DNA of 64,000 nt from Isurus oxyrinchus (taxonomy: Eukaryota): NCBI GenBank assembly GCA_026770705.1, contig JANJGN010000138.1, positions 186,001-250,000 of the forward strand, read 5' to 3'. Positions 12,318 through 43,741 of the stretch are shown here, piece by piece. Numbering within the stretch: the first letter of the stretch is position 1; every line of letters starts with the position of its first letter. Below the pieces are notes generated by a model that saw only the letters and a program-made list of their open reading frames with translations, was not told where the DNA came from and made no database searches. The translations under genes and the position numbers were made by a program.

Positions 12318-12360
12318 GGCTCTTTTCAGAGCCACAAAATGGACAAAGGGAAGGGCTGTG
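12318..12360 (+). promoter_or_regulatory. Histone mRNA 3' stem-loop plus histone downstream element
   Basis: Perfect GGCTCTTTTCAGAGCC at 12318-12333 with AC-rich flanks, followed by the purine-rich aaagggaagggctg (HDE-like). Confidence 0.9.
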
Positions 12361-12900
12361 ATCTGTGACTGCTGAGACCAGCATTTCACCACCCCCTAAT
12401 TGCTCTTTGCAACTGCGATTTTAATAAGACCCAGTGCTTTGCTAGACCAATTCAGGGGGACAGTTTAGAGCTCTGTGTCTGGAGTCACATGTTGACCAAT
12501 CCATGGTCAGAAGGAAAAAGCTAGAACCAGTGATCTGTCTTTGAGTCCAGAAATGAGGTTGATCTTCAATTAATGGAGGACGAGTCTGCTATCTGACCTA
12601 CAATACAGCAACAGCATCTGCGGGACCTGCCAGGACTTCACATTTCCACAACAGGCACTATGTGAAGCAGTTTCTCAATTCGCAAAATCAATCCCTCTCC
12701 CTTTGTACCTCTCACTGGAATTTATGTGACTTAATATCTCACCGAAAGAAATCGAATCTTCAAAGCTTTGAAAGCCCTGTGCAGATGAACGTTCTCAATT
12801 CGGACTTTCATACAGCCCAATAAGAGATGAACAATAATGTTTGCAGCAAAGTAGTGGGATACAATTTGGAAGTTTACATTGCAAAGCTCTAGTCAGTGTT

Positions 12901-12974
12901 GGCGTTGTGACTTAGTTGGTTAAAGCGCTTGTTTAATGTAAAAGCGATTCTGCTTTTCATTGTCAGATGTGTCT
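12901..12974 (+). pseudogene. tRNA-Thr(AGT) pseudogene
   Basis: ggcgttgtgacttagttggttaaagcgcttgtttaat... matches vertebrate Thr-AGT GGCGCCGTGGCTTAGTTGGTTAAAGCGCCTGTCTAGT. The B box is destroyed. Confidence 0.75.
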
Positions 12975-13620
12975 TTATCGATTAAGTCGATGCATGGCTT
13001 TAAATAAAACCATTGACGTCCAAAGGCAGCATTGATAATTAGGCGACTATATAATGAAGCCTGATAGGATCATTGTTTCCTTGGGAAGTCATGCGGGAAG
13101 AACATTTTAAAATATTGCCGGTGATAACTGTGGGCAAAGTTTGAATGATTTATGCTACTGCGCTTTAGGAAGGAACAAACGGGGAGAGATAAATGTTGGT
13201 GCTTTTTTGATGAAGTCCTTCGGCTGGCAGATCTATTTCCATCCCTACAATTTGTGATTTGGACTACTTAGAAGCTTTGTTGATTTCAATGTGATGTCAT
13301 CACACGTTCCCACTACAAACACTGTTAGAAATTGTTTATTCATTTTTTAGCTTCCGACTCCAATTATATCTTCCCGAAACCAATGCAATCTTCAAAGCTT
13401 TAAATGCCCAGTGCAGATAACTGGCTAACAACAGTTGCGAGGTCACACTCCATGTGTCAGGAGTGAGTAGTCGGTGCAAATTAGAATAATTGTAAAATGA
13501 AGCCAAAGGGAGGCTGCTGGTCTGCTTGTGAGGAAAAAGGAGCTGCAGAAGATGAGTCACCTCACAAGGGAATGCATAAAAAGCTTGTGACGCCTCTTTT
13601 TAAGTAGTGATGGCTGCTCT

Positions 13621-13693
13621 CACTGGGCATCTCTTTTGTTAGGGCACCAGACTTTTAATCTGAGCGTTCAGGTGATAAGTCCATGTCTGGCTG
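13621..13693 (+). pseudogene. tRNA-Lys(TTT) pseudogene
   Basis: Anticodon arm cagacttttaatctgag is identical to Lys-TTT. The D and T arms are degenerate. Confidence 0.75.
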
Positions 13694-14565
13694 TTCACTT
13701 TCGGCTTAAGATGTTCCCGCCCGGTGAAACGACTAAATAAAACAGCCTTGGACACTGAATTCTTCAAGGGAAGCTGAGGAACTGGCGGCGTTACTTTGAT
13801 TTCCAACAAAGGATCCACTCTCTTGCAATTGTGGTAGCCTCGATCAATTTAAATTCTTTCCTGGGTTTCCAGGTACTCCTTGTGTGAAGAATGTTTCCTG
13901 ACATTCCTCTTGCTTGGCTGGCACCTGTGCTGTGGAACTGTGACCAAAACAAAAGTCAACATTCAACCCCATTCTTCCTGCCAGGTGAAATAGCTTCTCT
14001 GTGTTTAAACTAACAATTCACTTTTACAGGTTAGAAGCCTCGATCAGATCATTCTTCTATAATGAAGAGAATAGAAAAAACAGTTAATCCCTGAAAATAA
14101 AACTAAAGATTTCATAAGGATCGGGGAGATGGCCGGTGGATTGATTGAGGCGAATTTCTCCTTCAACGAACCAGCACAGACAGGATGGGCCAAATGGCCT
14201 ATTTATCGGCTGACCCCATTGTATGCTAATACGAATCGTGGATGATGAAATTTAACTGCAGATCTAACCTGCTTAACTCCAGAGCCCACTGGTCAATCAG
14301 CGCTGCTTCCTTTCCTAGCTTAGTATAATCCTGATGTATCTTCTGAGCAGTGTCTGCAACAACATGAGAAATAGGGACAGGTGTGTCATGTGTCTCACGG
14401 CTTCACAAACCGTCCAGACATTCTTGGGTGAATGTCCACCTCAATTGCTCCTTCCTCAAAATTCTTATTTCGTGCTGCCCTACAGCCCCATAACAGATGA
14501 AGAATTCTCTATGAACTTACAGCAAAATAGTGAAATACGGTTCAAAACATAGCTGTTTGTGATTT

Positions 14566-14640
14566 AGCAGTGTGGTAGAGTGGGTCATGTCTTACATATA
14601 GTCATGCAGACGATCCTGAGTTCAGATTTCAATAGTGCTG
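14566..14640 (+). pseudogene. Degenerate tRNA-like sequence, isotype uncertain (paralog at ~17786-17853)
   Basis: Acceptor-like ends agcagtg...tagtgct, A-box-like tggtagagtgg, T-arm-like ctgagttcaga, followed by a T-rich tract. Confidence 0.35.
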
Positions 14641-15399
14641 TTATTTATTTAAAATTAATCAGGCAAAGTGCTGAACATTTTCAGGTCGTGAGGAAGCAAA
14701 TAGAATGAATGTGAACATAAAGAAGCACAATAGGATCGAAATTCCCTTTGAAAAGAACGTGCACCAGTATGCTTATGTATCGCTCCCTTTTCAGTTCATC
14801 CCAATGTACCAGTGCGTTTGCCATATTACGTGAATGATAACTGCTTTGGGGTCAGTGCAGAAGTCGTGCAGGATATAACATTTTCTTTTCCTCTCTGTCT
14901 TTATCCATTGCATGCACTTACACAAAGAGGGACACCAAGGATCAATCTACGAACGTCTCAAGGGATTTGAGACGTTTTTCCAGCAAAAAAAAACTAGATT
15001 TTAAAGACATCTCAATCAACCACTAATTTTGGAAAAATAAATGTTTTTCTCCGCTTTCATTCCACCTGGAAACTGTTGTTGGGATGAACCTCACTGAATA
15101 GACGGTGACCGATAAGGTTTGGTCCACTATGGGAAGCTTTGAACTGAGGATGGCACAGGACACCAGGGTAGGACTGCAGCGACCCTCGGAACACATTGAC
15201 AGCCTTTTATTTTATTGCTAATTGAATTTAAGATTCGCTGCTGAGGTCATCATTTATATTCGGGGCCTCGTTCCCAATTAGTGTTTAATTGTCCACCGCC
15301 TTTCACGACTGGAAGTGACAGAACTGCACAGCTTAGATCCGATGTCATGGTTATGGAATCACATCAAAAGCGATTGTCTATGAGGACAACAGACATGGC

Positions 15400-15905: not shown

Positions 15906-16069
15906 GTTCATGCTTGCAACTTAATATCTCACCTGAAGAAATAGAATCTTCAACGTTTTGAAAGCCCAGTGCAGGTGAAAGTTTTCAATTCGCACAAATG
16001 AACAATAATATTTGCAGCGAAGAAGTGGATGCAATTCAGAACTTTGCTTTGTAAACTCTGGTCAGTGTT

Positions 16070-16143
16070 CGGCTTGTGACTTGGTTATTTAAAACGCTTC
16101 TTTAATACACATGAGATACTCTGTTTAAATGTCAGTGGCACCT
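16070..16143 (+). pseudogene. tRNA-Thr pseudogene (paralog of 12901)
   Basis: Same position within the duplicated unit; ggcttgtgacttggttatttaaaacgc...gtcagtggcacct. Confidence 0.55.
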
Positions 16144-16832
16144 TTATCCTTTCAGTCAATGCATGGTTTTAAATTTAACCAATGACGTCCTGAAACACAG
16201 TAGGGAATTAGGAGCCGATGTAATGAAGCCAAACAGGATCACCGTTTCCTTGGGAGGTTCAAGTGGAAGGAACAATTTGAAATATTGCCGGCAAAAATGA
16301 TGAGCGAGAGTTGAATTTTTTGCGTCACTGCATGTTCGCCAGGAATGAATGAGGAGGGATACGTGTTGCAGTCCTTTTTGATGAGACCCTTGGGTTGACA
16401 CTTTCTTCAACCCGACACTTTGTGATTTGCACAATGTATAGCGTTACTCCGAATGAGCTTCGTGGTTTTCAGTGTGACCGTGTCACCGGTTCCCACAACA
16501 AGCACCATATGATTTTTTTAATCCACTTGAGAAATCTACCTCTGTCCCTTTTGTAGCTTCCCACTCCAATTATATCTTACCAAAACCAACGAATACTGCA
16601 AAGGTTTAAAGGTCTAGCGCAGATGCCTGGGCAACAGGAGTTGTCAAATCATACATTGCTGGTAAGGAACGAGTAGTTGGTTCCAATTAGAATAACTGTG
16701 AAATGAAGCCAAAGGGAGGCTGCCGGTCTGCCTGTGAGGGGAATTCGCTGCAGAGGATGAAATACCTAACAGGAAAATTGAACAATAGCTTGTGATATCT
16801 CTTGTTCGACAGTGATGGGGAGTAGAGGCCGA

Positions 16833-16905
16833 GGAGCTCTAGAGAGCTCTGCAGCGCATCAGACATACAACCTGAGGGTCCAGCCTTGAAGTCCCAGTAT
16901 GTGGG
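16833..16905 (+). pseudogene. tRNA-Lys pseudogene (paralog of 13621)
   Basis: gcatcagac...ctgagggtccag...aagtccc matches the 3' half of tRNA-Lys. The anticodon loop is mutated. Confidence 0.6.
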
Positions 16906-18639
16906 TTGCCTTTTGGATCAAGCTGTTGATTGCAAGTGAAACGACAAAAGACAGAACAATGGACGCTGACATCTTCAAGGAGAACTGAAGTAACGTTTCG
17001 TTTATTTCCAAGGAAAGATCCACCCTCTCGAAACTGGGGTAGCCTCGATCAATTTATGAATTGTTATTGGGATTCCTGATGCTCCAAGTTTGATAAGTGC
17101 TTCCTGACATATCCGTTATTTGGCACAATCATTGTGGACCTGTGGCAAAACAAAATGTTAAAATGCAATCCCGTTCTTGCCACCAGAGGAGAAGACTTCT
17201 CTGTGTTTAACCTAACAATTCATTTTAACAGGTTAAAAACTTCAACCAGATCACGCTTCATTCTCCTGTAATCAAGGGAACAGAAAAAAATATGAATCCC
17301 TGAAAGTAGAAAAAAAAATTGTGCAGGGATGGAGGGAAGTCGGGGGGATTGACAGTGGGCGAATTTCTCCCTCAAAGAGCCAGTACAAGCAGGATAGGGC
17401 AAATGGCCTCTCGCTGTTCTGTATAAATTCTATGTTTATTCCAATCTAGGATGATGAATCCTTAACTCCAAAAAAAACCTAATGAATTCGGGAATCGCAC
17501 TGGTGAATCAGCACCGCTTCCAATCCAAGCTCAGTATAATCCTGGTGTTCCCTCTGAGCGGTGTCTGTAAGAACATGAGAAAAAGGAGCAGGTGTATCAT
17601 GTGTCTCACGTCTTTTTAAACATTCCAGAACTTTCTGTTTGGATATCCGTTTCAATTGCTCCTTTCTGAAAATTCTCAATTCGTGCTGCTCTACAGCCCC
17701 ATAGCAAATGAATTATTCCAAACGAGTTTGCTGCAAAATAATCAAACACAGTTCAAAACAGGGCTGGGTGATGTTGCTTGTAACTTAGCGCCGCGGATCG
17801 TTTCTTACATTTAATATTGCAGACGGTTCAAATTTCGGTTCTCAATAACGCGGTTATTTATTTCAAATTAATTAGGTAAAGAGCTGAACATTTTCAAGTC
17901 GGGAGGAAGCATATAGAATGACGTGCAAATGTAAAGAAGCACAGTAGGGTCGAAATTCTCTTCGAAGCGAACATGCACCCTTGCTCTTAAGAATTGCTCC
18001 CTCTTCTTTTCATCCTAATGAACTTGTGGGTTTGCACTGTTACCCTAATGATAACCGGTTCGGGGTTATTGCAAAAGTTATGCAGTGGATGCCATTTTCT
18101 TTTCCTGTTAGACCTTTATCCGCCGCACACACTTAAAAAAAAACGATATTACGGGTACATTTACGAAAGCCTTAAGAGATTTCAGAGGTAATGGGTGAAT
18201 GGGAGAATAGACTAGCAGATGTTTTTTTTTTTACTCTATGGATATAAATATAAAAAGTTGCGAAAACAGGAACGGGCCGAATAGGGACTAAAACGGAATT
18301 TCACGCCTGGAACCAGATAATTATATCGTGTTTGCCAAGAAAGAAAAACACGGCCAAAGGCAGAGTGAAACTCGAGGTAGTTGTGAAATTGGATGCTCGA
18401 CAATTGTAGAAAGAGGCGGCATTATAAACCTGGCTTTTCTTAAATGTTGATAATTCACCTGGATTGGTTCAGAGGCAGGGTGTTGAGGAAAGAAAGTTTG
18501 GAAATTGTGGAGGGTAGTGGGCCGCAAATTTCCAATCCTGCTCAGTTATAACGGACGATGCTAGAGAATTTTAGAATTGCAAATGTTATACCATTCTTCA
18601 CAAAATTTAACTAATTATCATTTTGTAAACCACACACGC

Positions 18640-22560: not shown

Positions 22561-22629
22561 ATAATGCTGAATCCTCCACTCACTGCCAGTTGAATTTGAA
22601 AACCAGATACTAGAGGAGATGCTTCAAGT

Positions 22630-22702
22630 GGCCGGTTGCTCAGCTGGTTAGCGCGTGGTGCTAATAACGCCAAGGTCGCGGGTTCGATCCCCGTATGGGC
22701 CA
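22630..22702 (+). tRNA. tRNA-Ile(AAT), probably impaired (A9 deleted, D-stem mismatch)
   Basis: ggccggtt-gctcagctggttagcgcgtggtgctAATaacgccaaggtcgcgggttcgatccccgtatgggcca. The B box is intact and a TTTT terminator lies at 22708-22711. Confidence 0.9.
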
Positions 22703-23049
22703 ACCGCTTTTATTCGACTTCGAAGGAATTCAAGTTATTAACAACCCTCTGCACGACAACAATAACTCGCTTCGCAACAATTTCACGCAAATACTGCATC
22801 TGTCAGCAAAGTCTATCCATTAACAAATTTCTCAACAGTTGGTCAGCTGCTGGCCAGGCCAAAAAGGCATTTGCTTCTTCGAGATGTCTTTTTAAAAAGC
22901 AGCACAATATACTCCTAATTTGTTGTTAATTGTTCTCAAACATGACCGGAACAAAGTAAAATACTGAACTGCGCAACGTCTACTTCATTGCTGAGCTACG
23001 TGTAAGCAACGGATAAACTAGGTCGCTGAGAAACCAATGTTTTCCCGTC

Positions 23050-24720: not shown

Positions 24721-26718
24721 TTCAGGTGAAGTTCCAGGCCGCAGAATTTTGGATAAGCATAGGTATATATGGGGTAGAAGATGGGAGGCTGGCCAGGTGA
24801 ACACTGGAATAGTCGAGCCGAGATTGCACAAAGGCATGGATGAGGGTTTCAGCAGCAGATGAGCTGAGGCAGGGTCACAGTTGGCCGATCTTTAGGATGT
24901 CCATGTACAGTGTGTTCATCTGATAACAGCCCGTCAGTCTGTCCAATATCATGCAGTTTTATCAGAGACGTTAGGGGTAAAATGGATACAGTGTCAGCCA
25001 TTATTGTTCAATATTAGGATTGTTATTGTACCTGTATCTCTGAAACATTATGTCACTGCGGGACTTTTCACATTTCACTGCAATCAGAAGCTGAACAAAA
25101 TGTCCCAGACTGTGGCCAAGCAGTGAGAGCCTTTAAAGCTGAAATTTGCTCCTTTAAGTGGCCCAATTGGGATCATTCCCTGCAGGTATTTCCTGTCATG
25201 CACCATTCATATCAATCTCTCCTGGCACTGGTTTCACTGGGAGGGATGAAGAGTCAGTGAACAGAGCGGAATGTCACAGTTGTTCTGTTCCTGACTCTCA
25301 CCCTCCCGGTAGTTTAGTGAGGACTCGGTCTCCCAGCTGTCAGTAACTCCAGTATCCGGATCCTGGTAAGTTCATTGTGGTTCAGTGTTTAGAAAACACA
25401 ATAACAAGCAAAGGTCATGGAAACTATCATAACTCAGATTCAGTAGGGGATCAGACATGTGGGCAATGTGCGCTGTCTACCTTCTGATTCAGGTTCCTGA
25501 ATGATACTGAAAAAGACATGATATCTGTTGCATTGTTGCTGTTATGGTCGTATGGCCTTTTGGATGAGGCGTTTTACTTCCATGTGTCGTGCAAGGTTAT
25601 CAAAAGCTTGGAGGTTGGTGTCCTGCAGTTTGTCTTGTGTTCGTTTCACGCAGATAGGTTGCCATGTACATGAGTTCCAGCACACTTTGTGTGTATAATT
25701 CTTTTTCTAATTAACGCGGTAAAATCTCTGGCTTTAATTCTTTTACGGTGGCGCTGAGTCCTAGGTTCCCAGTCAGCCTGGAATAGGTTTGGGCTGATCT
25801 TACCTATTCAAAGTTACAAAAAAATGTATCGAATCCCTTCAGCAATCGTGGGGAAGGATCTCCGTAAAGCAACCGTCAGTGGGTTAAATGTAGGCACTGA
25901 GTTGCTTCGGGAATTAAAGAGTGTTAGGAGTGAGTTCCAGAGGCAAACAGAGGTACAGAGAAAGAAAACGGAAAGATTGGCGAGGAGGAAGAGAAAGGAA
26001 TATGAATGGCGTTCACCATCTTTCAACTTTTACTCAATGAAAAATCAAAAAAGAAAAATAATCTCTGTGCCAAGGAGCTGCTAATAGTGCAGAAAGCAGT
26101 AAATAGGGCTGGATTTAGGAGAATCATCGTGTTCACAGAGGGAGAGGCAATGGGATGAGAAGCTAAAAATTACGAGGGGGCCGGGGATGAAAGGCAGGAT
26201 CCTGAATAGCTGCTGTCCGAAACCAAAGGAAATAAAGGGAAAAATAAATTTTCAAGCTGAACAAAATGGTGGCAGAGATTACAATGTAAATTACTGTGTG
26301 ATGTTACAGTCACGCTTTACAAGATGCGCGTTTAATGTCGAATTATTAATGAATTCTGCCTCGTTAGTCATTACTAAATCGAGTGTGGCCGGTTGTTCTC
26401 GGTTTGAAAATACCTTCTTTCAGCTAGCTGTCCTAGTTTCAAGGTACAATTCACTGATTTCACGGAAATTCCGATTTAGCCCAGTTTAAATGATAGAGCC
26501 AGCATCGGTGTTCGGACACATACGGAACTGTCGGCTGACTTGGTGTGAAGGGCCGTTCCTGTCAAGGAACTCCCATGTTCCGGATCTCTGAAAACAGCCG
26601 CGTTTCCTGAATCTCCCTGTCGCTGATACGACATATTTATCTGCACTGTCTCCTACATCTGAATTTTAAAGTACATTTCCAATTTCGTGTGTTTTCTACT
26701 TTAAAAGTAATAAATGCA

Positions 26719-26790
26719 CTCCTCGTCGGGGAATTGAACCCCGGGCTCCCGCGTGACAGGCGAGGATACTTACCACTATACTAACGAGGA
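26719..26790 (-). tRNA. tRNA-Asp(GTC)
   Basis: Reverse complement TCCTCGTTAGTATAGTGGTAAGTATCCTCGCCTGTCACGCGGGAGCCCGGGGTTCAATTCCCCGACGAGGAG. Acceptor, anticodon and T stems pair, and a TTTT terminator follows (aaaa at 26703-26706). Confidence 0.95.
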
Positions 26791-27481
26791 ACTAGCTAAC
26801 TTTATTCTACGGGACTGGTGCTAACTTTAGTAACAGAAGAAAATGCTGAATGTGGGAATGGAGAGGTTGCGGGCTTCATTCAGTTTTTTCAGAGACTAGA
26901 AGGATGACCGGATATCTTATCTGATTGAACTCGCTGTTCTTTAATTGCTATTAGGAACCTTATGATGCGTAATAACCCACAAATTGATAGAATGAAAGAA
27001 ATTGAATTGTCCTCCGATTAGCACGTTCATATCGTGAAAGATTCCTCTGTTGTGTAGTGTCTCGATTTACCAATGGGGAAATCTGACCGCCAGTGAGATC
27101 CGCGGATGTAATACTCACACCAAACTTTCAGTTAAATTGCCAATATGGGAATTGTCAGTGAACACGCGGCACACCCCTGTGCTCAGTAATGCGCATGAGT
27201 GACGAGAAAACGTCCATCCTGCACCTGCAGTGAAAGTCTAGGAGAGTTCGGAGACAATGAAATGTCATCAATTCAGGTTATCTGTTTTGTGGCAAATCCT
27301 GTCAAAATAACACTTCTTCTGACCCCAATTTGGGACTTTTTAAACGGATAGTGATTTATTTTTCATCTTGAATCATTTCCCGACCAGGAACACAATGAGG
27401 GAAAAATACCCAAATGTTAAAATGGAAGGTGAATATATAGATGTTCACCCTGCAGTGACTGGGAGATCCCCACTCTCATTG

Positions 27482-27598
27482 TAAAACAAAAACAGAATTA
27501 CCTGGAAAAACTCAGCAGACCTGGCAGACCTGCTGAGATTTTCCAGGTAATTCTGTTTTTGTTTTGGATTTCCAGTATCCGCAGTTTTTTGTTTTTAT
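27482..27598. mobile_element. Short inverted-repeat retroelement fragment with a 13-bp target-site duplication
   Basis: Arms aaaacaaaaacagaattacctggaaaa.ctcagcag and ctgctgag.ttttccaggtaattctgtttttgtttt. Flanked by cccactctcattg (27469-27481) and cccactcttattg (27599-27611). Confidence 0.8.
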
Positions 27599-28127
27599 CC
27601 CACTCTTATTGCGTCCAGCCTCCTGCTGGGCCGCCGTCTTGCATTTGTGCAGCAGCTGTTTATTATTCGGTTCAGCTCTGTCTCTCCCGTCACTGGTTCT
27701 CCATCCTGTCGATGGTGCTGTCTCATGAACTCCGAGAAGGTAACGCATTCGCTTATTAAAGTCACAAGAGAGACGCTCTTTTACTGAAACATTTGGTCCC
27801 AGACCGAGTGTTTAGTTCACCATCCAACAGCTCCTGGGAATTACATGCAATATATTTACTTTCTTTATAAATGCCTGGCTACTGGTTGATATGTGCACTC
27901 ACCGTTGACTGTCTCAATGACCATTAAGGGTAAAGGCTTCCTCCCGTCTGCTGTAGAAGCTGTGCCCCTGCAGCTTGAGTTCAGAAGGACATCACTAGTG
28001 AAAAGTGCATGCACCAGGCGGCTTATAACCAGATTTCTCTTTTCTAAATATTTCAGAGTCTCCAATTTTTCCTGTGCAACAAAAATATTTGACGATGTTG
28101 CACTTTCACTTTCTCTTGCCCAGGTTT
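27595..28127 (-). pseudogene. BEN-domain-encoding exons (28127-27903 and 27731-~27595) of a spliced pseudogene
   Basis: Exon tttcag|...|gtgagt encodes ...KRNLVISRLVHALFTSDVLLNSSCRGTASTADGRKPLPLMVIETVN. The next exon encodes EFMRQHHRQDGEPVTGETELNRIINSCCTNARRR. Together these fit the BEN pattern (LxxxLF..L..S..G...KxxL...IxxxCxxARR). The second acceptor reads cgg instead of cag. Confidence 0.7.
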
Positions 28128-28609
28128 CTGAAAGTTAGGGAATTAATTTGAGATCCTGATAGTCTGATGGCTGCAAATGCGTGTTGCTGCTAAATCACGA
28201 TAGGGTGTGAAAACTAGACAATGTGCTTTCATGTCCTGAGTGAATTGTACTTGCCTCAAATCTTCATTCCCACTCCCATTCTTCAATCCTGCCTCCAGGA
28301 GGTATTCTTTGTGTGAAAATGCGGCTCTGCATCTATGTAATTTCGGCATTAATAGGTAGTTGATTGGCAGTTACCCCCTGAGGTCGGTATAATGCTCGGA
28401 ATAACTGCTGGTCGCTTTGAAAAATATTATTAAAAATGTTTCAGTGATGGACATTGAACCATCGTAAAGAGAGAGTCAAAGCGTTATCGCTGCGATTTCT
28501 CATTTAATTTCCCAATCTGGTGACAAGAATTACTCAAACCGTCGAGGCTGAACTAGGCAGACCACTATATGCCTTACAGAGCGATAGAGAAAGGACTTTC
28601 TTCATTCTT

Positions 28610-28912
28610 TCCAATGTAACATCCCTGACAAGGCCGGCATCCCCATCCCTTGAGAATGGTTAAGTGTCAACCAGCTTACTGCAGACCAGGCTGGGCAAGG
28701 ACAGCAGACTTCCTTGCACATGGGACATTTATGAACCTGCTTTTTTTTTTACAACAACCGACGATACTCTAATGTTGGCCAGCATTATTTAAATTAGTTT
28801 TATATCCCAGAATGTCTCAACTGATTTGAAATTCGGTCAGCTGGCATAGTTGGATTTGAACTTTAGTCCCCTGAGCATTAGCCTCTCTGGATTACTAATA
28901 CAGTGACGTCAC
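28610..28912 (-). mobile_element. tRNA-derived SINE (HE1-like) with a LINE-related tail
   Basis: Minus-strand head gtcactgtattagtaatccagag...gttcaaatcc (B-box-like). The tail is similar to the LINE 3' ends at ~3250 and ~55180. Confidence 0.55.
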
Positions 28913-30394
28913 CAGAGAAAAAGGCCAGTCAATAGATGTAGGTACCATCGTCTCTGATCAATTGCTTGTGAGCATATTCTTGGCAAAGTCAAGGGTGAGA
29001 ACATGATGTGATCTCTCAGTTTGACCTAAATTCACATATTGTTGGGAGGGTTCCACAAGCACTCATCGACTTCTCATCTTCACACTTGCTGTCAATTGCC
29101 ACTGGGACCAAAGGGACTAAAAATCTCCCGCATGAGCTTTCCAGGATTCACAGCTTCAATGGAAAGGGGAAAGTCGCTGGTTGCTTTATCTTGCTCTCGA
29201 GAGGAATCCAAGGGCTATAGATTCAGAAGCTGTGGAGGGGGCAGAAGGGCGGGGGCCACGTGGGGATGATCCACGTGAATTTCATTACGTACAATTGCAG
29301 GATCTCTATTCACAGAACTCTGTTTTCAGGTGCCTCAAACAATTCATCATAATGTGCAGGGACCCGGCAATCACAGACTGTAGAGGAAGCTGCTGATTTG
29401 TGGAGTGCAGCATGGAACAGGGAATTCTTACCCAGCTTGTCACAGAGAGGACATGCTAGTGCCTTGGTCCAGCTGTTCCATTGAGCCCGTGGTCTATGGT
29501 ACTCTGCACACAGGATACCATTCTCCTGCCTCTCGGCTTCTATTTCAGCTTGTCATGCTCGCTGTCTGACCATTGATATTTATGGAGATGGATAAAGTGG
29601 TGTTGGATCTGCGATGCTGGACTGTGCATGTGCGTTACCCACCCATGTAAGTTCAGCTGTTACCAAAGGAAGCTCAGCAGAATGTGACTTTGAAAGCAGC
29701 TGGTGAGGGGCTCTGATTGGCCTGATGTGGCTGTTGTCATTCTGACTGGGGGCTAAACGTTGAGACTCAGCCTCATGCTGCCATTCGTCCTTCCCTCTGG
29801 CTGCCTCACTTGGCTCCTTTCCGCTGTCACTGTACAGAGTGGCAGTTTTCACCAATGCCGACCACTGCTTGGTGCCACTGGTGGAGGTTCACACCGTCCT
29901 GTTGGTAGGTCGTTCCTCCTCCTGATCATCCTCCAGCTTGGCCATTAACCCTGCACACTTCTGTCGGCTAGTCTACAACCGAGGCCCAGGTGAATGACGC
30001 TGCTTTCCCTTTTTTCTGTGTTGAGCCACTCCCATTGCCATGGAGTCCAGCGGCAGGACGGTGCACACTGCCCTTGGTCTACACTTTTTTCACCTTCTGT
30101 GCGCTCGCTCCTGCAGCACGGTCAGCAGCAGCGCCCAGCTGCAGATCAACAGGTTGCTGAGCGGTCCTCAGCTCCTTCTTTAACTCTCCAAGAGTAATAT
30201 TTGAATGTCTCAGAAATCAGTCAATTCACAATGAATAGGATAGAATAAAAGGGTTCTTTGTTTATTCCAGCTATTAATATCTGCCTCAGTAACAGTGCAA
30301 TGATCATTGTTTGTGCTGCAGTCTGACAACAAGAACCTGAATAATTTACATGATTTCACTATTGCAGGTGGTCAAGTTGATCCTCTGAGCAGGG

Positions 30395-31042
30395 ATGGCT
30401 CATACCAAACAGATAGCCTGGAAGTCCACCAGCGGCAATGCGCCCAGGAAGCAGCTGGCCTCCAAGGCAGCCCAGAAATATGCCCCCTCCACTGGCGAAG
30501 TGAAGAGATCTCATCGCTACAGGCTGGGTACAGTCGCACTCTGAGAAATCTGCCAATGCCAGAATTCCATATAGAGTTGTTTATCCGCAAAGTGTCCTTC
30601 GAGCGCCTGATGAGGGAAATTGCCCAGGGCTTTGAAACTGACCTGAGGTTTCAGAGTGAGGCAATTGGAGCATTGTAGGAAGCCAGTGAGGCCTACTTGG
30701 TTGGCCTGTTTGAGGACACCAACCTGTGTGCCATCCATGTCAAAAGAGTGACCGTTATGCCAAAAGACACCCAGCTGGTACAATGGATCCGGGGGAGCGT
30801 GCTTAAGCTCTGTGCTGTATTACATCTCCTCCAGACTATTTTGAAGTGATATTCAAACATTTTCTAAAACATTATTGGACTGTAGGTTTGGCTTCTTGTG
30901 GACGCTGGGCCTTTATTTTGTATTTTTGTTAGTTTTGAGTATTGATCGTGTCTTAAAGTGGAAATAGTGAAACATTTTGTAAACTGTCCTTCGAACTCAT
31001 GCTCAGGATGGAAAATAAACTTTAGTATCTTTTTAAAAAAAA
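30395..31042 (+). pseudogene. H3F3: Processed histone H3.3 pseudogene (CDS 30395-30806, 3'UTR, poly(A) remnant)
   Basis: [34 protein letters not shown]... carries the H3.3-diagnostic S31 and (A)IG at 87-90 (FQSEAIGAL). It is intronless, with stops and frameshifts. AATAAA at 31014-31019 and an A-run at 31035-31042. Confidence 0.92.
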
Positions 31043-33829
31043 TGAAATGGTCGTGTTTGACCTATACACTCCCATCTAAACGGGAGTATTGAAGAAATTA
31101 TTGTGCAGAGTGTTTTTTTTAAGCAGTTTTCTGGCTAGTTTTACACTCTACGTTGTTCGCCATGACCCCAGGCCTATTTACTAGCCTCGCTTTTCCCTGT
31201 CACTGCGGCCTACCCTATGTTACAGGAGGAGAAAATAAAGAACAAATGCTTCCACTTATTCTCAAAATTTTCCCCAAGACCTTTCCTCACCCCTTCCATT
31301 TGACACAGAACGTCCCCCCTTCCTCTCGATTCTTCTTGTCGCTCATGGTAGACAGCGGCTCAATCCTGGTCAGCAGCTCTGCGCTCTAGAAAACCAGACA
31401 TAACTTATGGGTCGCTGCAGCTTGCTCTGCCGGGGATACTGAGTCCTTGGCAGCAATAAGGTCACTGATGTCCAGATGGCCAAAAGGGATGCTAATCACA
31501 GTGGACAAAGTCTGATATGAACCTGCTGATGGACTGAGAATGGACAATGGTCAGAATGGCAGCATTGGTCAGAAAAGACTGAAAATTAGGGGAGGGAAGC
31601 AAAAAGATCTAGGAACACGTTATGACAAGGATTGATGACTACACCAATCTAGAGTTTTGTTTGACCTCTATTGTACTGCAGATGTTTCTAGGCCATTTTC
31701 AAGTGGGTGTAATTATTAAAACTCAAGTGGACATTTTGTCCACTGTAAACTAAGTTGAAGAAAACATCTCCCTATGTGCGGGGGTGGCACTGAGAAAGGA
31801 TGGAAACTGAAACAATTCTCGAATAAAGCAGGAGCAGCAGATGAAGAGACTTCCGCGGTTGAGATAAACATGTCACGGGGACCATCTCCCAAATGTGCTG
31901 CAGGCCTTTCAGATCCCCTTGAGGTGATGGCTGGCCTGCGGTCATATTTTCTTTTCTCTCTATCCCGAAAGCAGGGAGTCCAATTTCTAGCCCAGGATGC
32001 ACCATGCAGTCTGACTCAGCACAGGGCTGAGTGCTGCATTACTAGCGGCCTCATCATGTGGAGGAGGTTTCAAACTGCAGCAGCCATGTGCCCCGTCTCC
32101 CTAAAGATCACATTCGGAGGATGAAGCAGAGAATTCTCTCACTGTAACAGCTCTTACACGCGGAAAGATTCTGTTAATGGGCCACTTATTTCAAAGAATA
32201 TCCCCAAAAAAATCACGGTAGAAGTTTCAAGCCAGTTCTTCCCCACTCTCACCCGCCTCCCCCATTAAAAACAACTCCAGGCTGGTCTCGCTTCCCTCCA
32301 CCCACCCTCTATCAACATGCCATCCTGGCTCCCCGTTCCCCATCTCCATGCATGCCTGACTCCTCAATTACCCCCCACCCCCTCACCCCTACCAGGCCCC
32401 AATATCAGAATAATTGTTTGCATTTGCCACTCCTCGCTCTCTCGGGATCCACATGGTTCCGGCCTCTACCTCTACCCGTCACCTCTACCCGACTTAAAAC
32501 GTTGTGGCCTCTCCCGGCTCGGGCCAAAGGCTCCAACCTCTCATATTCTCGGTCCCGCTCGCTCCTGATTCACCTGGAACTTTTACAATTACCGAAAACA
32601 AGCAGAAAAAGGGCACCGAACAGCACAGTTTGTGGAAATGCCCCTGGGAGCAGCAGGTACTGTGGGTGCGGCCTCTGGACCACACAAAGCATTTTTAATG
32701 TGCCCACCTTTGTGTGGCCGGGAGGGGCAGAGGCCAATCCTCTAATACTGACCGTTCCAGGTACAGGTTGCATTCCCACTTCCTGTCTCAGAGAAAGAGA
32801 GGATTAGACGATGGTTGGAGAACTAACAATGCGCAGGGTTGCGGGGAGAAGGCAGTTGAATTACACGTGGTGAAATGTTCATGTTTCAAAATCCTGTATA
32901 AATTGTGGTTCGTTCTGCTATCACTTTCAAAAATTAATGGCGGGAATAGCTCCCCGTTCACAACATTCTAAAAATGACAAATGAGACTTGAACATGTGGC
33001 GAGGCTGTTAAGTAAGTAGGACACAATTGTAGGTCGGAAAGTAAGTTGTGAAGAGGGCGTAAGAATCTTGATATGTTACGTGATTGGACAAATGGACAAA
33101 GACCTGGCAAATGGAGTAGAAAGTAGTAAAACATGAGGTTGTCTATTTTGACAGGACGGATAAAAAAGAGGCACATGACCCAACCAGTGAGACATTGCAG
33201 AACTCTGAGATGCAAAGGAGTCTGGGTGTCCTAGTGCATGAAATTTTTGGTTTCCGTGTGCTGCTAAACTCTCATTGAAAATCGGACAGTCCAGAGTCCC
33301 AGGCGAGATCCTTCCTGTCTCTGAGACCAGAATGGTTGCTTTTGAATAGTTCCCATTCGCTGAAAAAGCCTCAGTTAAACCTATTTCATTGCTGTAGAGA
33401 TCGCGCTCTCTCACCCATTTGCTGACATGTTCTCTACTTTCCTACTGAAATCATAAAATTAACTAAATCTTTCCGTTTAACTCCCACTTGAGAGGTGAGT
33501 ACCTATTAATTATTGCACGGTCCCAGCAAATTCGCTAGCCTCCTCAATCCTCCCATGTTTCTGCAAGATTGCTTTGTGAAAATGGGCTCACAAACAGCAA
33601 ATGCCCTGTGGGGAATGATCCCAAATTGAGCTTCCTAAAAGGACAAGTCCGATTTTTTCATTGTTCTCTGACCTTTTCCCCATCTCCAGTTCTTTTGTTC
33701 AGATGCTGATCAAAGTGAATTGCAGAAAATGTTGATTTCAGTTGCTGATTTGCAGTGGGAAAACAACGCATGAGGTATTTAGTCCCACACCGAACGCTGC
33801 TTGTTAGTGAGTCGGAGATGAAAGGTACA

Positions 33830-34170
33830 GAATGAATCCCACACTCACAGCTAGTAACAGAGATTGATATTTACCGAATCAATCTCAGACCTACCGATGG
33901 AAGCAAAGACTGATATTCATCGAATCAATCACACATTTGCAGATAGTGCCAGGGATTGCAATTGATCGAATCAATCGCACAATTACAGACAGTATCAGAG
34001 ACTGACATTTACATAATCAATTCCACACTGGCAGATAGTCACAGGGACTGAAATTGATCGAATCAATCCCACAATTACAGACAGTATCAGAGACTGATAG
34101 TCCCAGAATCAGTACCACAATCACAGACAGTACCAGAGACTGTTATTTATAGAATCCATCCGCACTCACA
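33830..34170 (+). repeat. ~41-bp minisatellite (gaatcaatcccacaattacagacagtatcagagactgatatttac-like)
   Basis: About 8 degenerate tandem units are visible. Confidence 0.85.
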
Positions 34171-34778: not shown

Positions 34779-34852
34779 TGTGGCAGCTGGGAATCGAACT
34801 GGGGGGTCAAATAATTGAAAAGCAGCTATGGTAACCACTGTACCACCATCGA
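34779..34852 (-). pseudogene. tRNA-Gly(TCC) pseudogene
   Basis: gggaatcgaac..gggtcaa....gcagctatg.taaccactgtaccacca matches the reverse complement of Gly-TCC. Confidence 0.8.
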
Positions 34853-35099: not shown

Positions 35100-36255
35100 A
35101 GAGCATAAAATCCCATCTCTAGTTTTCCTTGAGAAAATGCTGCTGAACTGCCTTTTCCATTCCACGTGGTGTATGTACACCCACAGTGCCGTTAGCGCTG
35201 GGGTGGGGGGATGGGGCTGGAGGGGGGGGGGTGGTGGGGGCGGAGGGGATTTTATAGGGTATTGATCCAGAGGTAGTGAAGGAACAGCGATATGTTTCCA
35301 TGTCAGAATGGTGTGAGGGTTGGAGGGGAACTCCCAAGTAGCGGTGTCCCCGTGCATCTGCTGCCCTTGTCCTTCTAGATGGTAGTGTTCGTGGTTTTGG
35401 AATTTGCTGTCCAAGGAGTCTTGGTGAGTTCCTACAGTGCATCGTCTGGTTGAAGAACACTGCTGCTACTGTACTCTCGTGGTGGAGGGATGTTGGGTGG
35501 ATAGGGTGCCAGTCAAGCGGGTTATCTTCTCCTGGATGGTGTCAAGCTTCTGGATGTTTGTTGCTGCACTCATCCAGGCCAATTGAGAGTACTCAAACAC
35601 GCTCCTGACTTGTGTCTTGTAGATGGTGAACAGTCTTTGGGGAGTCATGAGGTGAGTTACTCGCCACAGGGTTCCTCACCTCTAACCTGTCTTGCAGCCA
35701 TTGCCTTTGTATGGCTAGTCCAGTTCAGTTTCTGGTCAATGGTATCCCAGGATTTTGTAAATGAGAGATTCAGTAATGATAATGCCATTGGACTCAAGGA
35801 GCAATGGTTAGATTCTCCCTTGTTTGAGGTGGTCATTGCCTGGCGCTTGTGTGGCACGAATGTTACTTGCCACTTGTCAACCCAAGCCTGGAAATTGTCC
35901 ACGTCTTGATACATTTGCACGTGGACTGCTTCGGTGTGTGATGATTTGCGAATGGTGCTGAACATTGTGCCATCATCAGTGAACATCCGCACTTCTGACC
36001 TTAAGATGAATTGAAAGTCATTGATGAAGCATCTGAAGATGCTTAAGCCGAGGTCTCTATCCCGAGGAACTCCTGCAGTGATGTCTTGTAACTCAGATGA
36101 TTGACCTCCAGCAACAACTTAACTTTGTGATGGTATGACCCCAAGCAGCAGAGCGTTTTCTCTCTGCTTCCCATTAACTCCAGTTGTGCTTGGATCCTTG
36201 ACGTTGCACTCGGACAAAAGCTGCCTTAATGTCGACGTTAGCCAAACTCATCACA
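35100..36255 (-). mobile_element. CR1/L2-clade LINE 3' fragment (same family as 3230-4730)
   Basis: DIKAAFVRV, MFTDDGTMFSTI and IYKTQVRSVFEYS motifs. Confidence 0.85.
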
Positions 36256-36745: not shown

Positions 36746-39700
36746 GAGTTTAACTTTGTGTGTAGAATTATTATCTAATTCCCGCAGGGAAATATCTGGC
36801 TTTAATTCTTTGACTGTGACCCTGGGTCAGTGGCAATAGTTTATGGACTGATCTTACCCGCTCAACGTTATAAAGAAAATGTACCGAATCCCTCCTGCCA
36901 TCATGAGGAAAGACTTCAGTAAAGGGACAGTCAGTGGATTAAACATACGGGCTGAGCAGCGGTTTAGTGACAGAAATTGATGAGGTTTAGGAGGGAGTTC
37001 AAGGGCCAACAGAGTTATAGGAAAAGAAAACGAAAGATTGGCGAGGAGTAAGAGAGAGGAATATGAATGGCATTCACCATCTTTCATATTTTCACAGAAT
37101 CACAGTGCAGAAGAGGCCCTTCGGCCCATCGAGTCTGCACCAACACGTGAGAAGCGCCTGACCTACCTACTTAACCCCATTTACCAGCACTTGGCCCATA
37201 GCCTTTTACAAAGGTGACCAAAGTAAAGAAACCTAGGGTTACCTTCTTGCATTCACAAATGAAACTGAAAAGGTGGTTCAATGTGGTACTGTAGGGGTGC
37301 CGCCTTCCTTCAGTTACTTCAGAGGCAAGGATGAAATGATACGCTCTCTCAGTGAACTCTCTTTGTTTCAATTCCAAACTGGATTTATAATGCTTCATTA
37401 CCCAAAAATTTACATAATTGTTGAATATTAGAAATTGAGTTGCCCCGTGGTCAGGACAATTATATCTTGAAGAATTCCTCCTGAGACTAGTGGCTCAATT
37501 TCTCAATGAGAAAATGTGCCAATAGTGAAATCTCAGTATTTAATACTCACACTAAACTTCCAGGAAATCTGCCAGTGTCGGCGATCGTCAGGCTTCCGAT
37601 TTATTTCTCTATTTCAATTATTTATTTATTTCAGGATTTTTGTTTGTTGAAGCATCCCCGCCAGGCTGGCCGGCAATACGCATTTCAAAATTACTCCAAT
37701 TTTTTTGAATTTGGGTGTAACATTTTCAATCCTCCACTGCTCTGGAACCAATGGGTGACCCTCTCTCTCTGTCTCTCACCAAATATCGATCGTTACCTGC
37801 CCTTCTCTCTTACACATGTTCACAATTGCACTTTGCGGTTTAATACATAATTGATTGTTTTTACAATTATTCTCGTTTGAGTGATTCGGATTTATGAGAA
37901 CACTGTATACAATACAAATACGATGCATAATTGTGTATTATAGTTATGTAGATGAATGTTGCTTACAGTATTCCAGATGCAATTAATTTTGAGCTCGATA
38001 TCTGTGTCAGGAGGGTGCAGAACACATTTGTATGGCGGGCTGTCGGCGAGCTCCAGTCCAATGTTTGTGGTAGAAACTCTTTGTAGGGACTTCAGTCTGG
38101 CTCGAATTGTTTAGATAACAATTTACTTTTGAATTATTGGAAATACTAATCCAGTTGCATTATGCCATCCAATTGGCATAAGTCCTGGTCTCTCTGATCC
38201 ACTGCTTGTGTGCATGCTCACGGAAATATCAAGGATGAGGGCGTGATGTGACCTCTCAGTGTGACCTAAGTTCACATTATGGAGAGAGAGCTCCACAAGT
38301 ACTCACCCCCTTTTTACCTTCAGGCCTGCTGTCGGAGGCCCCATTACCCTTCAAGGGAGCAACATTGTGCCACATGAACTACAGCTTTCCAGGATTCACA
38401 GCTTCAATAGAAAGAGTAAAGTCACAGATTAATGTCAACCCAGAGGAATCGAAGGGCTATAAAATCAGCAGTTATGGGGTGGGGATGGCTAAAGAGGGGG
38501 CAGGGGTGATACACATTAATTGAATGACATCCAAGTGCAAACCTCTGCCTGGGTTAAGGGTGGTCAGTTCCAAGTTTACAGAACACCGTTTACAGGTGCC
38601 TGAAACAATACATCATAAGGTGCAGCAATCAAGCACTGTAGTGCCGTGTCCTTGCCCAACTGTTCAATTCAGCCCGCCGCCTCTCCTGCACTGTATGCGG
38701 TGACGATTATCCTGTCTCAGGGCTTCCATTTCACCCAACGTCCCTCGTAGGGCCAAGTGTGCTCGTACATCTGCCACACCTTGGAGTCTGACCCCTATTA
38801 TGTATGGAGGTGGGTAAAGTGGTGTTGGATCTGTGATGCTGGGCAGGCCTTGTCCATTTAGCACCCATGTACGTTCACGTGTTACCCAGTGATGCTCAGC
38901 CTTTTGTGGCTGCGAATGCAGCTGGTGAGCTTCTCTGTATCTCATTGCATGATGTGGCTGTTTTCATTCTGACTGGGGGTAAACGTTGAGCCTCAGCCTC
39001 GTGCTGCCTTGTCCCCTTCCCTCTGGCTGGGTCATTCAGCTCCTTTCTGCTGGCACTGTGTGCAGTGCCCGTTATCATCAATGCTGATCATTGCTCAGTT
39101 CCTCTGGTGGGGGTTGACACAGTTCTGGCTGTAGGTGGTTCCTCCTCCTCCTCATCCTCCAGCTTGGCCATTATCCCTGTGCACAGCATTCGGCTAGTCT
39201 CCAACCTAGGCCCGAGTGAATGCCACTGTTTTCTCTTTCCCTCTGGAGGGCCACTCCCAGTGCCATGGAGTCCAGTGGCAGGAGGCTGCACACTGCCCTT
39301 GGTCATCACATTCTTCACCTACAGTGCGCTCGCTCCTGTAGCACATTGAGCAGCAGTGTCCAGCTGCAGTTCAACAGCTCCTTCCTTAACTCTGCAAAAT
39401 TAATATTGGAATGTCTCGGAAATCAGTCACCTCATAATGAATAAGATTGACTAAAAGATTCTTTGTATAACGCTTATCACAGATATTAATATCTGAATCT
39501 GTAACAGTGCAATGGTCACTGCCTTGGGCTGCGCTTTGCAGGCAAAACATATATCATGTCCCTGAGTTCATTACCAACTGATCAACTTTGACCTGTAGAC
39601 ACTCACTAAACGGAAGTATTGAAAAAAACAATTGTGCAGGCAGAATAGTAAACATTTTTCTGTCCAGTTTTAACCTGTTTGGCATGTTCCCAGGCCTATT

Positions 39701-42700
39701 CATTTGTTTAGTTTCACCCTGTCAAATGGGCTCAAGTTCACCTTCTATGTGCTACAACAGAAGAAAATAAAAATCCTACCACTTACTTTCAAAATTGTCC
39801 TGAAATAATTCCCTCTTCTCTGCCAGTTGACCAGGCCCATCCAACCTTCCTCTCGATCCTTCTGCTCGCTCATGACAGACACGGCACAATCCTGGTCAGC
39901 AGCTCCGCGATCCAGAGAACCAGACATAACTGTTGGGTCACTGCGGCTGGATCTGCCGGGGGTGCCGAGTGCTCAGCAGCACTAAAGTCACTGATGTCCA
40001 TACAAGAGGTCCTGATATGGCGAAAAAGCATGATAATAAAAGCGGAAAAGTCTGGTAAGAACCAGCTGATAGAGTAAGAATAGTTAATGACAGAAAGGAC
40101 TGAAAATTAGTGGCGGGAAGCAAAAACATCTGGGAACACTTAATGACAAGAATTGGGGTGACTGGACCATATTTTGTGATCTCTATTTGAACGTAAATGT
40201 TTCTAGGCCATTTTTAGCTGGATGTAATTATTAGACTTCAAGCGGGTGAAAACAGTCTGTCTACTCTTGACTGGGAAACAGTCTGTCCACTCTAAACTTA
40301 ATTGAAGAAAACATCTCTCTATGTCTGGAGATAATACTGAGAAATGTTGCAAAATTTGATAATGTTTGATCAAATTTCGAGCACTATTTGAAGAGGTTCC
40401 TACAGTTGAGATAAAAAGATGTAGCGAGGATCATCTCCCGAATGTGCTGGAGGTTTTGCAGGCCGCTTTGTGGTGAGGACTGGCCTGTAGTCATTTTTTT
40501 TTCTTGCTCTGCATCCAGAAAGCAGGGAGTCCAATTTCTAGCCGAGGATGCATCATGCAGGCTGATTTAGCAAAGGGCCGAGTGCTGCATTACTAGCGGC
40601 CTCATCATGTGGAGGAGGTTTCAAACTGCAGTAGCCATGTCCCCCGCCTCCTTAAATATCACATTCCAAGTTTAAAGCAGAGAATTATCTTACCTTTACG
40701 TATCAGGTTAACGGACCATTTATTTCAAAGAAAATCCGAAAAAAAACACGATGTTTGCCTCAAGCCAGCTCTTCCCGCCACCCCCTCACCGCTTACCCCT
40801 GCCCCCACAACACCGCCGCCTCCGGGCCCTCTAAACCAACTCCATGCTGGCCTTGCTTCCATCTTCCCACCCCATATATTCGTACAGGCCTGGCTTCCTC
40901 TTCCCCATTTCCATGCTAACCTGCCCACCCCTTTTCCAGAAGCTCCAATATAGGCCTCAATCTCTCGCATTCTCGGCCCCACTCACTCTCGATCCACATG
41001 GAGCAGCTCCACTTACTGATCACAAGCAGAAATGCGGCACACACCAGCACAGGAAGTTAAAAGGCCCCTGGAAGCAGCAGATACTGAGGGAGTGGCTTCT
41101 GGACCACGCAAAGGATTTTTAATGTGACCATCTTTGTGCGGCTGGGAGGAGCAGAGGCCATTAGCCATCTTCCAAGGTATAGGCTGCATTCCCACTGGCT
41201 GTCCCGGTGCAAGAGGGGATGAGATGATGGTTGGAAAACTATCAATACGCAGGGATGCGGGCAGAAGGCAGAAGAATGGACCTTGTTCAAATGTTTATGT
41301 TTTAAAATCCTTTCTTGATTGTGATTCACCCTGTTATCACTTTCAAACTTTACCGAGCAGGAATAATTCCCCATTCACAACAATCCCTGAGCCAAAACAT
41401 TTCTAAAAGCGACAGATGAAACTTGAACAACCATCAAAGTAGATGGGGAAGTAAGGATCACACAAATTGAGTTAGGAAAGTTAGTTGTGAAGGGAACGGA
41501 AGGATATAGATAGGTTACATCAGTGGACAAAAAGATGGCAAATGGAGTGTAAAGTAGGAAAATGTGAGTTTGACCATTTTGGCAGGACAAAAAAAAAGGG
41601 GCATATATTATAAACGGTGAGAGATTGCAGAGCTCGGAGTTACAGAGGGATCTGGGTGTCCTACTACATGAAAGATTTTGTTCCTTTCTGCTGTTAAACT
41701 GTCGAAAGCCATTGAAATTCGCCCTGTCCCGAGTGCCAGAATGGTTGTTCTTGAAAAGAGCCTCATTCGCTGAAAAAGCCTCAGTTTCGTTTTAAAACTC
41801 TTTCACTTCTGCAGTGGTCAAGCTGTCTCATGCATTCACTGACCTGCTCTCTTGTTTTCGACTGAAAACTCAAAATCAACTCAATCTTCCCGTTTAATTC
41901 TCACTTCAGATCTAGCTGCAGAGTGATCCTATGACAGGGAAATCATTTTGTTTTACACAAGATGGGCACAGAAATCAGGCGTTGAGAGCGGACACAGAAA
42001 CACAGGAACATCATTTTAACCCGCAAGCCGCTTTCACACACTCTGTCTTCCATAATGTTCACAGCCAGCAATATGTATAATTAATATGAAAATACAAATG
42101 TTGTGCTCTGGCCCTTCAGTAAGCGTATTCCACGTTGTTTTGTAGGGCAAGGGAGAAAAGGGAGAGAGAGCGGAGAGAAAGACAAAGTCAGGGTGAGTTC
42201 AGGCAGTGAGACACAGACAGTCAGGCAAAGTATCGGTTGCAGAATACGTTGTTGAATCCAGTTTTACGAAGGTACAATTGGAAAGGTAGAAAATGTTGTC
42301 TCATTTCTCATTGATATTTTACCAGGGAAAAATGCATTATTAATCACACACTCAGGGTCAGTGCCAGAGAATTACCTAAAGCCTCATATTTAACCCCGTT
42401 TTCCCTGTTGTAATCTCTGCCGTCTTACAGGTGAGAGTTGCTGGGTATTGCTCTCAGTAACGGAGAGTTTCACTTCGATTAAATGAATCTGGTGGTCTCC
42501 CTGTCAGATATTAACTATTGCATGGCTCCAACAAATCACTCCCTCTGTCATTCCTCCCATGTTTCTGCAGGATTGCTTTGTGAAGATGGGCTCGTGAAGA
42601 GCAAATCCCCTGCAGAGAATGATGCCAAACTGGAGTTCGTAAATTGACAAGCCCCTCACTTTTCAATGCTCTGTGATCTTTTCCCATTCCCAATCCTTTT

Positions 42701-42824
42701 GCTCAGATAGTGTTCTAAGTGAATTGCAGAAAATGTTGATTTTACTTGCTGATTTGCAGCAGACATCCACACATGAGGTATTTGGTGCCACCTGAACGCT
42801 GATTGTTTGTGAGTCAGAAATTGA

Positions 42825-43035
42825 CAGATACAGAATCAATCCCACACTCACGGGTAGTAAGTGAGACTGATATTTACACAACTAATCCCACAAACATAGA
42901 TAGTACCAGAGACTGACATTGATAGAATGAATCCCACAATCGCAGGTAGCACCATAGACTGATATTTACAGAGTCAATTCCACAATCACAGATAGTGCCA
43001 GAGATTGATATTAATAGAATCAATCTGCACTCAGA
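42825..43035 (+). repeat. ~41-bp minisatellite (paralog of 33830-34170, fewer units)
   Basis: Repeated aatcccacaatcacagatagtaccagagactgatatttacag-like units. Confidence 0.8.
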
Positions 43036-43669
43036 TGAATAGTGAAACTTTCCAGGATTACAGGGAGCAGCAAACCGTGAATTGCACCTTCAGAGGGCCA
43101 GCACAGATTGGACAGTCCGAATAGCCTCTTTCTGTGTTGTAGCTATTCCATGATTCAAATAGAAAATTATTGGAAGAACGTAGTAGCTCTGGAAATGTTG
43201 ACGTTTCGATAGCAGATCGTTTTATTAAAACTTCAATCGACTTGAAGTGTGAATCATCCATTCATCTCTCCACAGATGCTGTCGGAGCACAGATGAGTGT
43301 TTTAGCAAATACTGTCATTATTTCAGATTGCCAAATTGAGCAGTGTCTCACTTTTTGAACAATAAAACAATCCCTGTGCAGGAATTCATATTCCAATAAT
43401 AAATGGGAAGCAACAGAGGGGGAAATTCAGATAATTGGCGAATTTTACTAAATCGGAGTAATTCTATCCCTGCTCAATGCTACAGTTCAGGGAAAGTCTT
43501 CATTATCAGCAACGAGGAATAAACCTGAGTTACATTTTAAATGGATGAGAAGGTTGGAAATATTTTTTATAAAAATTGAACCAGCTCGTATTTTTGGAAC
43601 AGAATTTCACCGAAACAGATCACATTCAGCTGCGAACTTCATATCTCAGGGGTTTAGAAACTAACAGAC

Positions 43670-43741
43670 TGCGGCAGCCGAGAATCGAACCCGTGTCAAT
43701 TACTTAGAAGAGAGTTATGCTCACCACTATACCACCATCAC
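43670..43741 (-). pseudogene. tRNA-Gly(TCC)-derived pseudogene whose anticodon now reads TCT
   Basis: tgcggcagccgagaatcgaacccgtgtcaattacttagaagagagttatgctcaccactataccaccatcac vs the reverse complement of Gly-TCC. The anticodon stem is disrupted. Confidence 0.85.

Follow-up and report, generated by a model that had tools for sequence, protein, structure and literature searches.

A decayed BEN-domain gene among tRNA genes of Isurus oxyrinchus: very probably a dead fragment of an En/Spm-type transposon

Introduction

A 64-kb stretch of the genome of the shark Isurus oxyrinchus, referred to here as the window, carries the remains of a spliced BEN-domain gene inside a repeated unit of tRNA genes. 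This raises the question of what kind of gene it was and how so many copies of it came to lie beside tRNAs. An earlier note, made from the window alone, proposed a lineage-specific, amplifying BEN gene family embedded in tRNA clusters. Searches of the 4.98-Gb assembly that contains the window lead to another answer. The feature is very probably a dead piece, lacking both ends, of an En/Spm (CACTA, CMC) transposon with two genes, the second of which encoded a BEN protein, and the amplified copies appear to go back to one such dead fragment rather than to an amplifying gene family.

Exon structure of the BEN gene

The BEN domain is encoded on the minus strand by two exons. Exon A (27903..28127) has AG..GT ends and is separated by a 171-nt intron (27732..27902), with a GT donor and a dead acceptor, from the last exon, exon B (27595..27731), which encodes the C-terminal helix of the domain and the stop codon and begins after CGG. 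These splice sites and the joined reading agree with the earlier description. An alternative acceptor 2 nt downstream was rejected because it shifts the frame. In an alignment of 106 rows (the window and 105 loci, duplicates removed), the donor recurs among the copies, as do the two acceptor positions. Nevertheless, the phase 1-1 assignment and the length of 225 nt were mistaken: exon A measures 226 nt in 68/106 copies and 225 nt in 11/106, its ancestral form being of phase 0-1. The window copy has lost one T from a T run near 28085; this 1-nt deletion makes its phase 1-1 reading artefactual, along with the first ~13 residues.

Further upstream, a small exon (~28252..28412, minus strand) that had been overlooked can be inferred from dispersed copies, and its 3' end matches a join in P0001, a predicted basking-shark protein; in the window its acceptor is mutated and its frame broken. 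The long exon (29066..30185, minus strand) contains several stops and frameshifts. Of the limits first given for it (~30190-28950), the start stands, since the acceptor at 30185 is conserved, but the end does not: no conserved donor was found at 28950 among the aligned copies, whereas a GT donor at 29066 is present in seven of the eight other aligned amplicon copies and reads AT in the window. Thus, the long exon most likely ends at 29066. Two other segments taken for exons, 31480-31300 and from 32100, have no conserved splice pair or frame in the compared copies. Sequence at 32178-31890 is common only to one dispersed copy, and the 5' part of the BEN gene region (31045..31888, minus strand), common to many dispersed copies, is rich in indels, with no coding frame demonstrated. 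At 32780-32593 the donor is conserved in part, and two dispersed copies show weak homology; this segment, proposed earlier as an exon, may be the first one.

The window copy, with its frameshift, stops and dead splice sites, is a pseudogene, as was first proposed from the AG>GG acceptor and the stops. No processed (intronless) copies occur among the aligned copies.

Identity of the BEN domain

The assignment of exons A and B to the BEN domain holds, as judged by profile comparison, with a match to NAC1 that extends over the whole domain. A profile of 13 exon-A pieces matches NAC1 BEN structures at E 1.9e-5, the next match lying at E 0.51. P0001 (XP_078415413.1, a basking-shark RefSeq predicted model and the only close protein match found) joins exons A and B and matches NAC1 BEN at E 3.3e-8, last helix included. 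Its counterpart in Isurus oxyrinchus is 82-87% identical and frameshifted. Moreover, the Atlas neighbours are BEN clusters (0.94). Pfam BEN (PF10523) alone gives E 0.03-0.12, below the cut-off, and a PF10523 search of the genome recovered the host BEND genes and missed the transposon BEN family. Other searches gave little: word-index protein searches returned no match, which is weak evidence, and a HMMER library search returned only two. A structure model of the BEN protein was of poor quality (pLDDT 64, pTM 0.33); with this model, Foldseek placed NACC1 BEN first (E 0.097) and VIA-align gave no match at Z >=5. Among 124 frames scanned with Pfam, H3 and a GPCR were the sole matches at E <1e-4, and no BTB domain was found. 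No evidence points to a viral origin.

The intron positions provide a second line of comparison. The exon-A profile matches a host BEND4-like exon at E 2.3e-6. Like exon A, that exon has an acceptor of phase 0, and its donor is of phase 1 at the aligned codon, so both intron positions of exon A are shared with it. A host BEND5-like exon has the same phases, with a weak alignment. The names BEND3, BEND4 and BEND5 are those that we take to apply to the host loci L051-L056.

Dispersed copies and the transposon

The family is widespread, with at least 145 genome matches (150 of 226 candidates scored), far above chance. In a tree of the BEN region (midpoint root), 99 amplicon rows separate from 7 dispersed rows with support of 100/100. 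It is the dispersed copies that reveal the element. Twenty-one such loci were examined, of which the BEN gene led to 15 and the transposase to six; they lie on contigs C1, C2, C3, C6, C7, C9, C10, C11, C15, C21, C23 and C24. The old copies that carry the features of the element are spread over at least ten contigs of chromosome scale. They have a sharp common right end, with an inverted match on the left (CCCTACCAGAAAA). The left terminal block is present in 11/21, the right in 11/21 and both in 6/21; BEN-gene sequence occurs in 17/21, a transposase remnant in 9/21 and both in 5/21. Two of the six loci that were found through the transposase alone carry BEN-gene sequence as well. Read from these fossils, the element consists of a 13-bp inverted end, a subterminal block, the transposase, the BEN gene in head-to-head orientation, a second block and the other end. 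One copy, C23a, shows the complete order of left end, transposase (opposite strand), BEN gene and right block, and a 2.4-kb, internally deleted copy retains both terminal blocks. None of the copies is intact by itself.

The enzyme is recognised from decayed sequence. Transposase_21 matches were obtained on two decayed copies at E 7e-6 to 3e-5, with 23.6-25.8 bits against a curated cut-off of 28.6. The transposase remnant adjoining the BEN gene matches no Pfam family itself but is 69% identical in DNA over 901 bp to a Pfam-positive copy. A PF02992 genome search gave no match, and its control was silent too.

A further 20 loci were defined by their ends. The 13-bp inverted ends, 2-9 kb apart, are present in 10/20; some non-coding BEN-gene sequence is retained in 5/20 and the transposase in 0/20, a composition that marks these loci as internally deleted derivatives. 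All 40 left-block candidates scored, of 320, lie on chromosome-scale contigs. A 14-mer end motif showed no genome-wide enrichment (99 vs 131 in the control). Ten two-ended loci, 25-35% diverged, include two with a candidate 2-bp target-site duplication and one with a candidate 3-bp duplication; three more two-ended copies comprise one 3-bp match, one near match and one without any match. The ends read CCCTA, one copy beginning with CAC, and animal EnSpm elements can have CCC ends. Because transposase, inverted ends and a second gene are present, but CAC(TA) is absent and the target-site duplication is mixed, the element is named En/Spm-type.

Both subterminal blocks are rich in palindromes. 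TGATCA occurs 32 times at each end vs ~6 expected, with both strands counted and in copies that are related and not independent; related palindromes are likewise enriched. By analogy with TnpA of maize Spm, the BEN protein of the active element may well have bound these repeats as a helper or regulator, a role that we consider somewhat better than even.

Selection in the transposon lineage

Deep dispersed pairs have a dN/dS of 0.51 (0.38-0.67) vs ~1 in shifted frames, which indicates that the BEN gene was under selection while its lineages diverged. This result bears on the alternative that survives best, namely that a host NACC/BEND4-like gene was taken up by the transposon as inert, Pack-type cargo with no part in transposition. 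The shared intron positions, the fact that the most similar domains are those of host NAC1 and BEND4-like genes, and the absence of the BEN gene from most copies that have ends would all suit such a capture. Inert cargo fits poorly, however, with a frame kept under selection among deep lineages, with a head-to-head position that is fixed in copies on different contigs and with motif arrays at both ends of the element, and such an inert capture is considered unlikely.

The window copy and its tRNA unit

Homology to the dispersed copies runs from ~32790 to 27172, delimiting a 5.6-kb internal fragment (27172..32791, minus strand) that holds the BEN gene together with sequence on its 5' side and its 3' flank. 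It has neither of the transposon ends nor the transposase, and no terminal block or transposase match was found anywhere in the 64 kb. The fragment is situated between tRNA-Asp(GTC) of the amplified unit (26718..26791, minus strand) and, upstream, tRNA-Gly(TCC) (34786..34850, minus strand), with a 46-bp tandem array at 33815-34161 between fragment and tRNA-Gly. In other words, the tRNA-Gly/Asp setting first described is real for tRNA-Asp, tRNA-Gly being present in the window only as a decayed remnant. An older second unit lies in tandem at 37280..43741 (minus strand). At 67-77% identity, it has neither the BEN exons nor the H3 insert, and includes its own tRNA-Gly remnant at 43677-43741.

Inserted sequences are also seen in the BEN region. 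An abundant palindromic mini-repeat (27483..27602) was inserted directly past the BEN stop codon, and a SINE-like interspersed repeat (28590..28917) lies in an intron, where it is common to the dispersed copy L033. That copy has two insertions in common with the amplicon and is likely its closest dispersed relative. Also present is a processed histone H3 retrocopy (~30360..31045, plus strand), antisense to the BEN gene and with a poly(A) signal and tail, which is carried by 10/74 long amplicon loci. The retro-insertion counted among the lesions of the gene is genuine, but its site is non-coding, upstream of the long exon, and it therefore does not damage the coding sequence.

Amplification and decay of the fragment

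The amplified copies lie mostly on contigs of 0.2-5 Mb, in addition to clusters on C17, C20 and C35; on two contigs they are ~50-900 kb apart. Sequence like tRNA-Asp accompanies 67/74 long loci, as expected from the proposal that paralogs sit beside tRNA genes. At the last acceptor, the 99 amplicon rows read GG in 85, GC in 7, AG in 4, GA in 2 and TG in 1, most of the non-GG forms being one further change from GG. All four AG copies fall within the youngest group, and their long exon contains a stop, a pattern in keeping with CpG decay and not with retention. Neither a terminal block nor a transposase turned up in 74 amplicon loci, each only 7.5-10 kb long. These shared losses suggest a single ancestor for the amplified copies, a fragment that already lacked the last acceptor, both ends and the transposase.

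Outside CpG sites, amplicon divergence is 0.077 at 0-fold, 0.095 at 4-fold and 0.094 at intron positions; with CpG sites included, dN/dS is 0.69 (0.53-0.90). The amplicon copies evolve near-neutrally, an approximate neutrality that leaves room for some early selection. The BEN frame is retained in 22/106 copies, four of which also keep all three splice sites. No open long exon exists in the 27 loci that have this exon, the longest open run being 180 aa, and the intact paralogs that had been sought did not appear among the BEN-family copies examined. When compared with paralog L008, the contigs of four possible RNA runs matched only repeats, apart from one 170-nt contig on exon B; they have no splice joints, leave exon A uncovered and are uninformative on expression.

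These data also weigh on the view that a host family of BEN genes expanded within tRNA clusters and has a few functional members. Its introns are host-like, the retained frames, the few copies with complete splice sites and the dN/dS below 1 with CpG sites included could be read as traces of function, a basking-shark model exists, and ~105 of at least 145 matches were inspected. Against it, the oldest copies are flanked by transposon ends and transposase, the dead acceptor is common to the copies, no long exon is open and the P0001 counterpart in Isurus oxyrinchus is frameshifted. Such a family is very improbable, and the interpretation as an amplifying gene family is replaced here by that of an En/Spm-type second gene.

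The mode of multiplication is indicated by the flanks. Amplicon identity spans the tRNA and the flanks as one block, and the tandem unit pair of the window recurs elsewhere in the genome, both of which argue for segmental duplication of a dead copy. The divergence of tRNA-Asp is 0.094 vs 0.083 in its 5' flank; as the tRNA diverges no less than its flank, it does not stand out as the driver of amplification. It is scarcely credible that the amplified copies represent an element that targets tRNA genes and is mobile now or was so recently, despite the frequent tRNA-Asp-like sequence and youngest copies that are ~95% identical, because ends and transposase are absent from the 74 loci and the window, identity runs continuously across tRNA and flanks, the tandem pair itself was duplicated, and no dispersed copy adjoins tRNA-Asp (the nearest call is 14 kb off).

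For the transposon fragment, the following course can be proposed. One copy would have inserted between tRNA-Gly and tRNA-Asp and subsequently lost both ends, the transposase and the last splice acceptor. The dead fragment would then have multiplied passively with the tRNA-Gly/tRNA-Asp segment, by segmental duplication, to more than 100 places, the H3 retrocopy having probably been gained later, in one sub-lineage.

Comparison with known systems

En/Spm (CACTA) elements are described, in the parts of the sources consulted, as encoding the transposase TnpD and a second protein, TnpA/ORF2 (PMC4158355; bioRxiv 10.64898/2026.08.24.746577). The main text of the latter states that Spm transposition requires TnpA and that TnpA-like factors are tandem HTH proteins of flowering plants only; it refers to 'various accessory proteins' without naming them, and BEN is not mentioned (bioRxiv 10.64898/2026.08.24.746577). 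Terminal letters are given elsewhere as CA..TG 'in most cases' (PMC12730594). The shark element resembles En/Spm in its short terminal inverted repeats, two genes, Transposase_21-type enzyme and repeated subterminal motifs. Unlike En/Spm, it has CCCTA rather than CACTA ends, head-to-head genes and a BEN second protein instead of tandem HTH. In titles and abstract openings, no published description of BEN genes in En/Spm elements was found; the accessory proteins just mentioned, and Repbase entries, could include BEN.

With NAC1/NACC1 (PDB 8yzs, 7bv9), the shark sequence shares the whole BEN domain and its last helix, and with the host BEND4-like exon it shares the phase-0 acceptor and the phase-1 donor. 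In contrast to NAC1/NACC1, the shark BEN gene is without BTB in 124 frames and is transposon-borne, multi-copy and dead. Amplified tRNA-rich regions with passengers are found elsewhere: as far as the consulted parts of these reports go, sharks and rays have tRNA/histone gene clusters (bioRxiv 10.1101/2025.06.08.657570), and zebrafish Chr4R has four DUF4806/BEN-type genes (10.1101/2023.12.06.570431). The amplicon is comparable to both, but neither report describes, in those parts, a repeat unit with a BEN remnant of transposon origin.

Conclusions

The window copy itself is junk; its value lies in pointing to a vertebrate En/Spm-type family with a BEN second gene. It also brings a caution, in that a BEN gene model listed as 'uncharacterized' in a shark annotation can be a transposon fossil, and an illustration that duplication of tRNA clusters can multiply dead DNA a hundredfold. 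The BEN domain stands nearest to those of NAC1 and BEND4, and the introns match; it thereby becomes testable where BEN chromatin factors came from and what part second genes play in the CMC transposons of animals. A tentative and rather doubtful extension is that animal En/Spm elements use a BEN protein as an end-binding helper unrelated to TnpA, that the host BEN exons of BEND4, BEND5 and NACC type share ancestry with it, and that some vertebrate BEN factors were domesticated from such transposons. If this were true, the shark fossil would be the vertebrate link.

Other features of the window

An intact single-exon frame of 329 codons for a rhodopsin-family GPCR lies at 47590-48579 (-) and matches Pfam 7tm_1 with an E-value of 5e-22. 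At 12313-12359 (+), a histone 3' stem-loop is matched by Rfam RF00032; no intact histone frame is present immediately upstream of it, and the site is likely a decayed histone gene. A low-scoring tRNA-Ile(AAT)-like gene occupies 22629-22705 (+).

Two old local duplications, both at 70-75% identity, pair 12729-14975 with 15919-18189 and 6180-9972 with 59303-63986, and three LINE fragments are found (3364-4363, 35242-36233 and 55282-56314). In each of the two tandem tRNA units, a 46-bp tandem array (33815-34161 and 42829-43025) separates tRNA-Gly from the BEN remnant.

Sequences elsewhere

The element L186 (G000:C2:67749200-67752100) carries two inverted ends spaced 2.65 kb apart. The 6-bp flanks outside these ends are also reverse complements of each other, and the locus is perhaps an inverted duplication.

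The genome also holds host BEN genes (L051-L056), among which the one on contig C6 has four domains in an open frame of 758 aa, and those on C13 and C5 are single exons. Exon A, the BEN exon at 28127-27903 (-), is matched (E 2e-4) by P0002, a BEN-like protein of 108 aa from a 2.9-kb JGI/IMG contig, which is possibly a relative in another animal.
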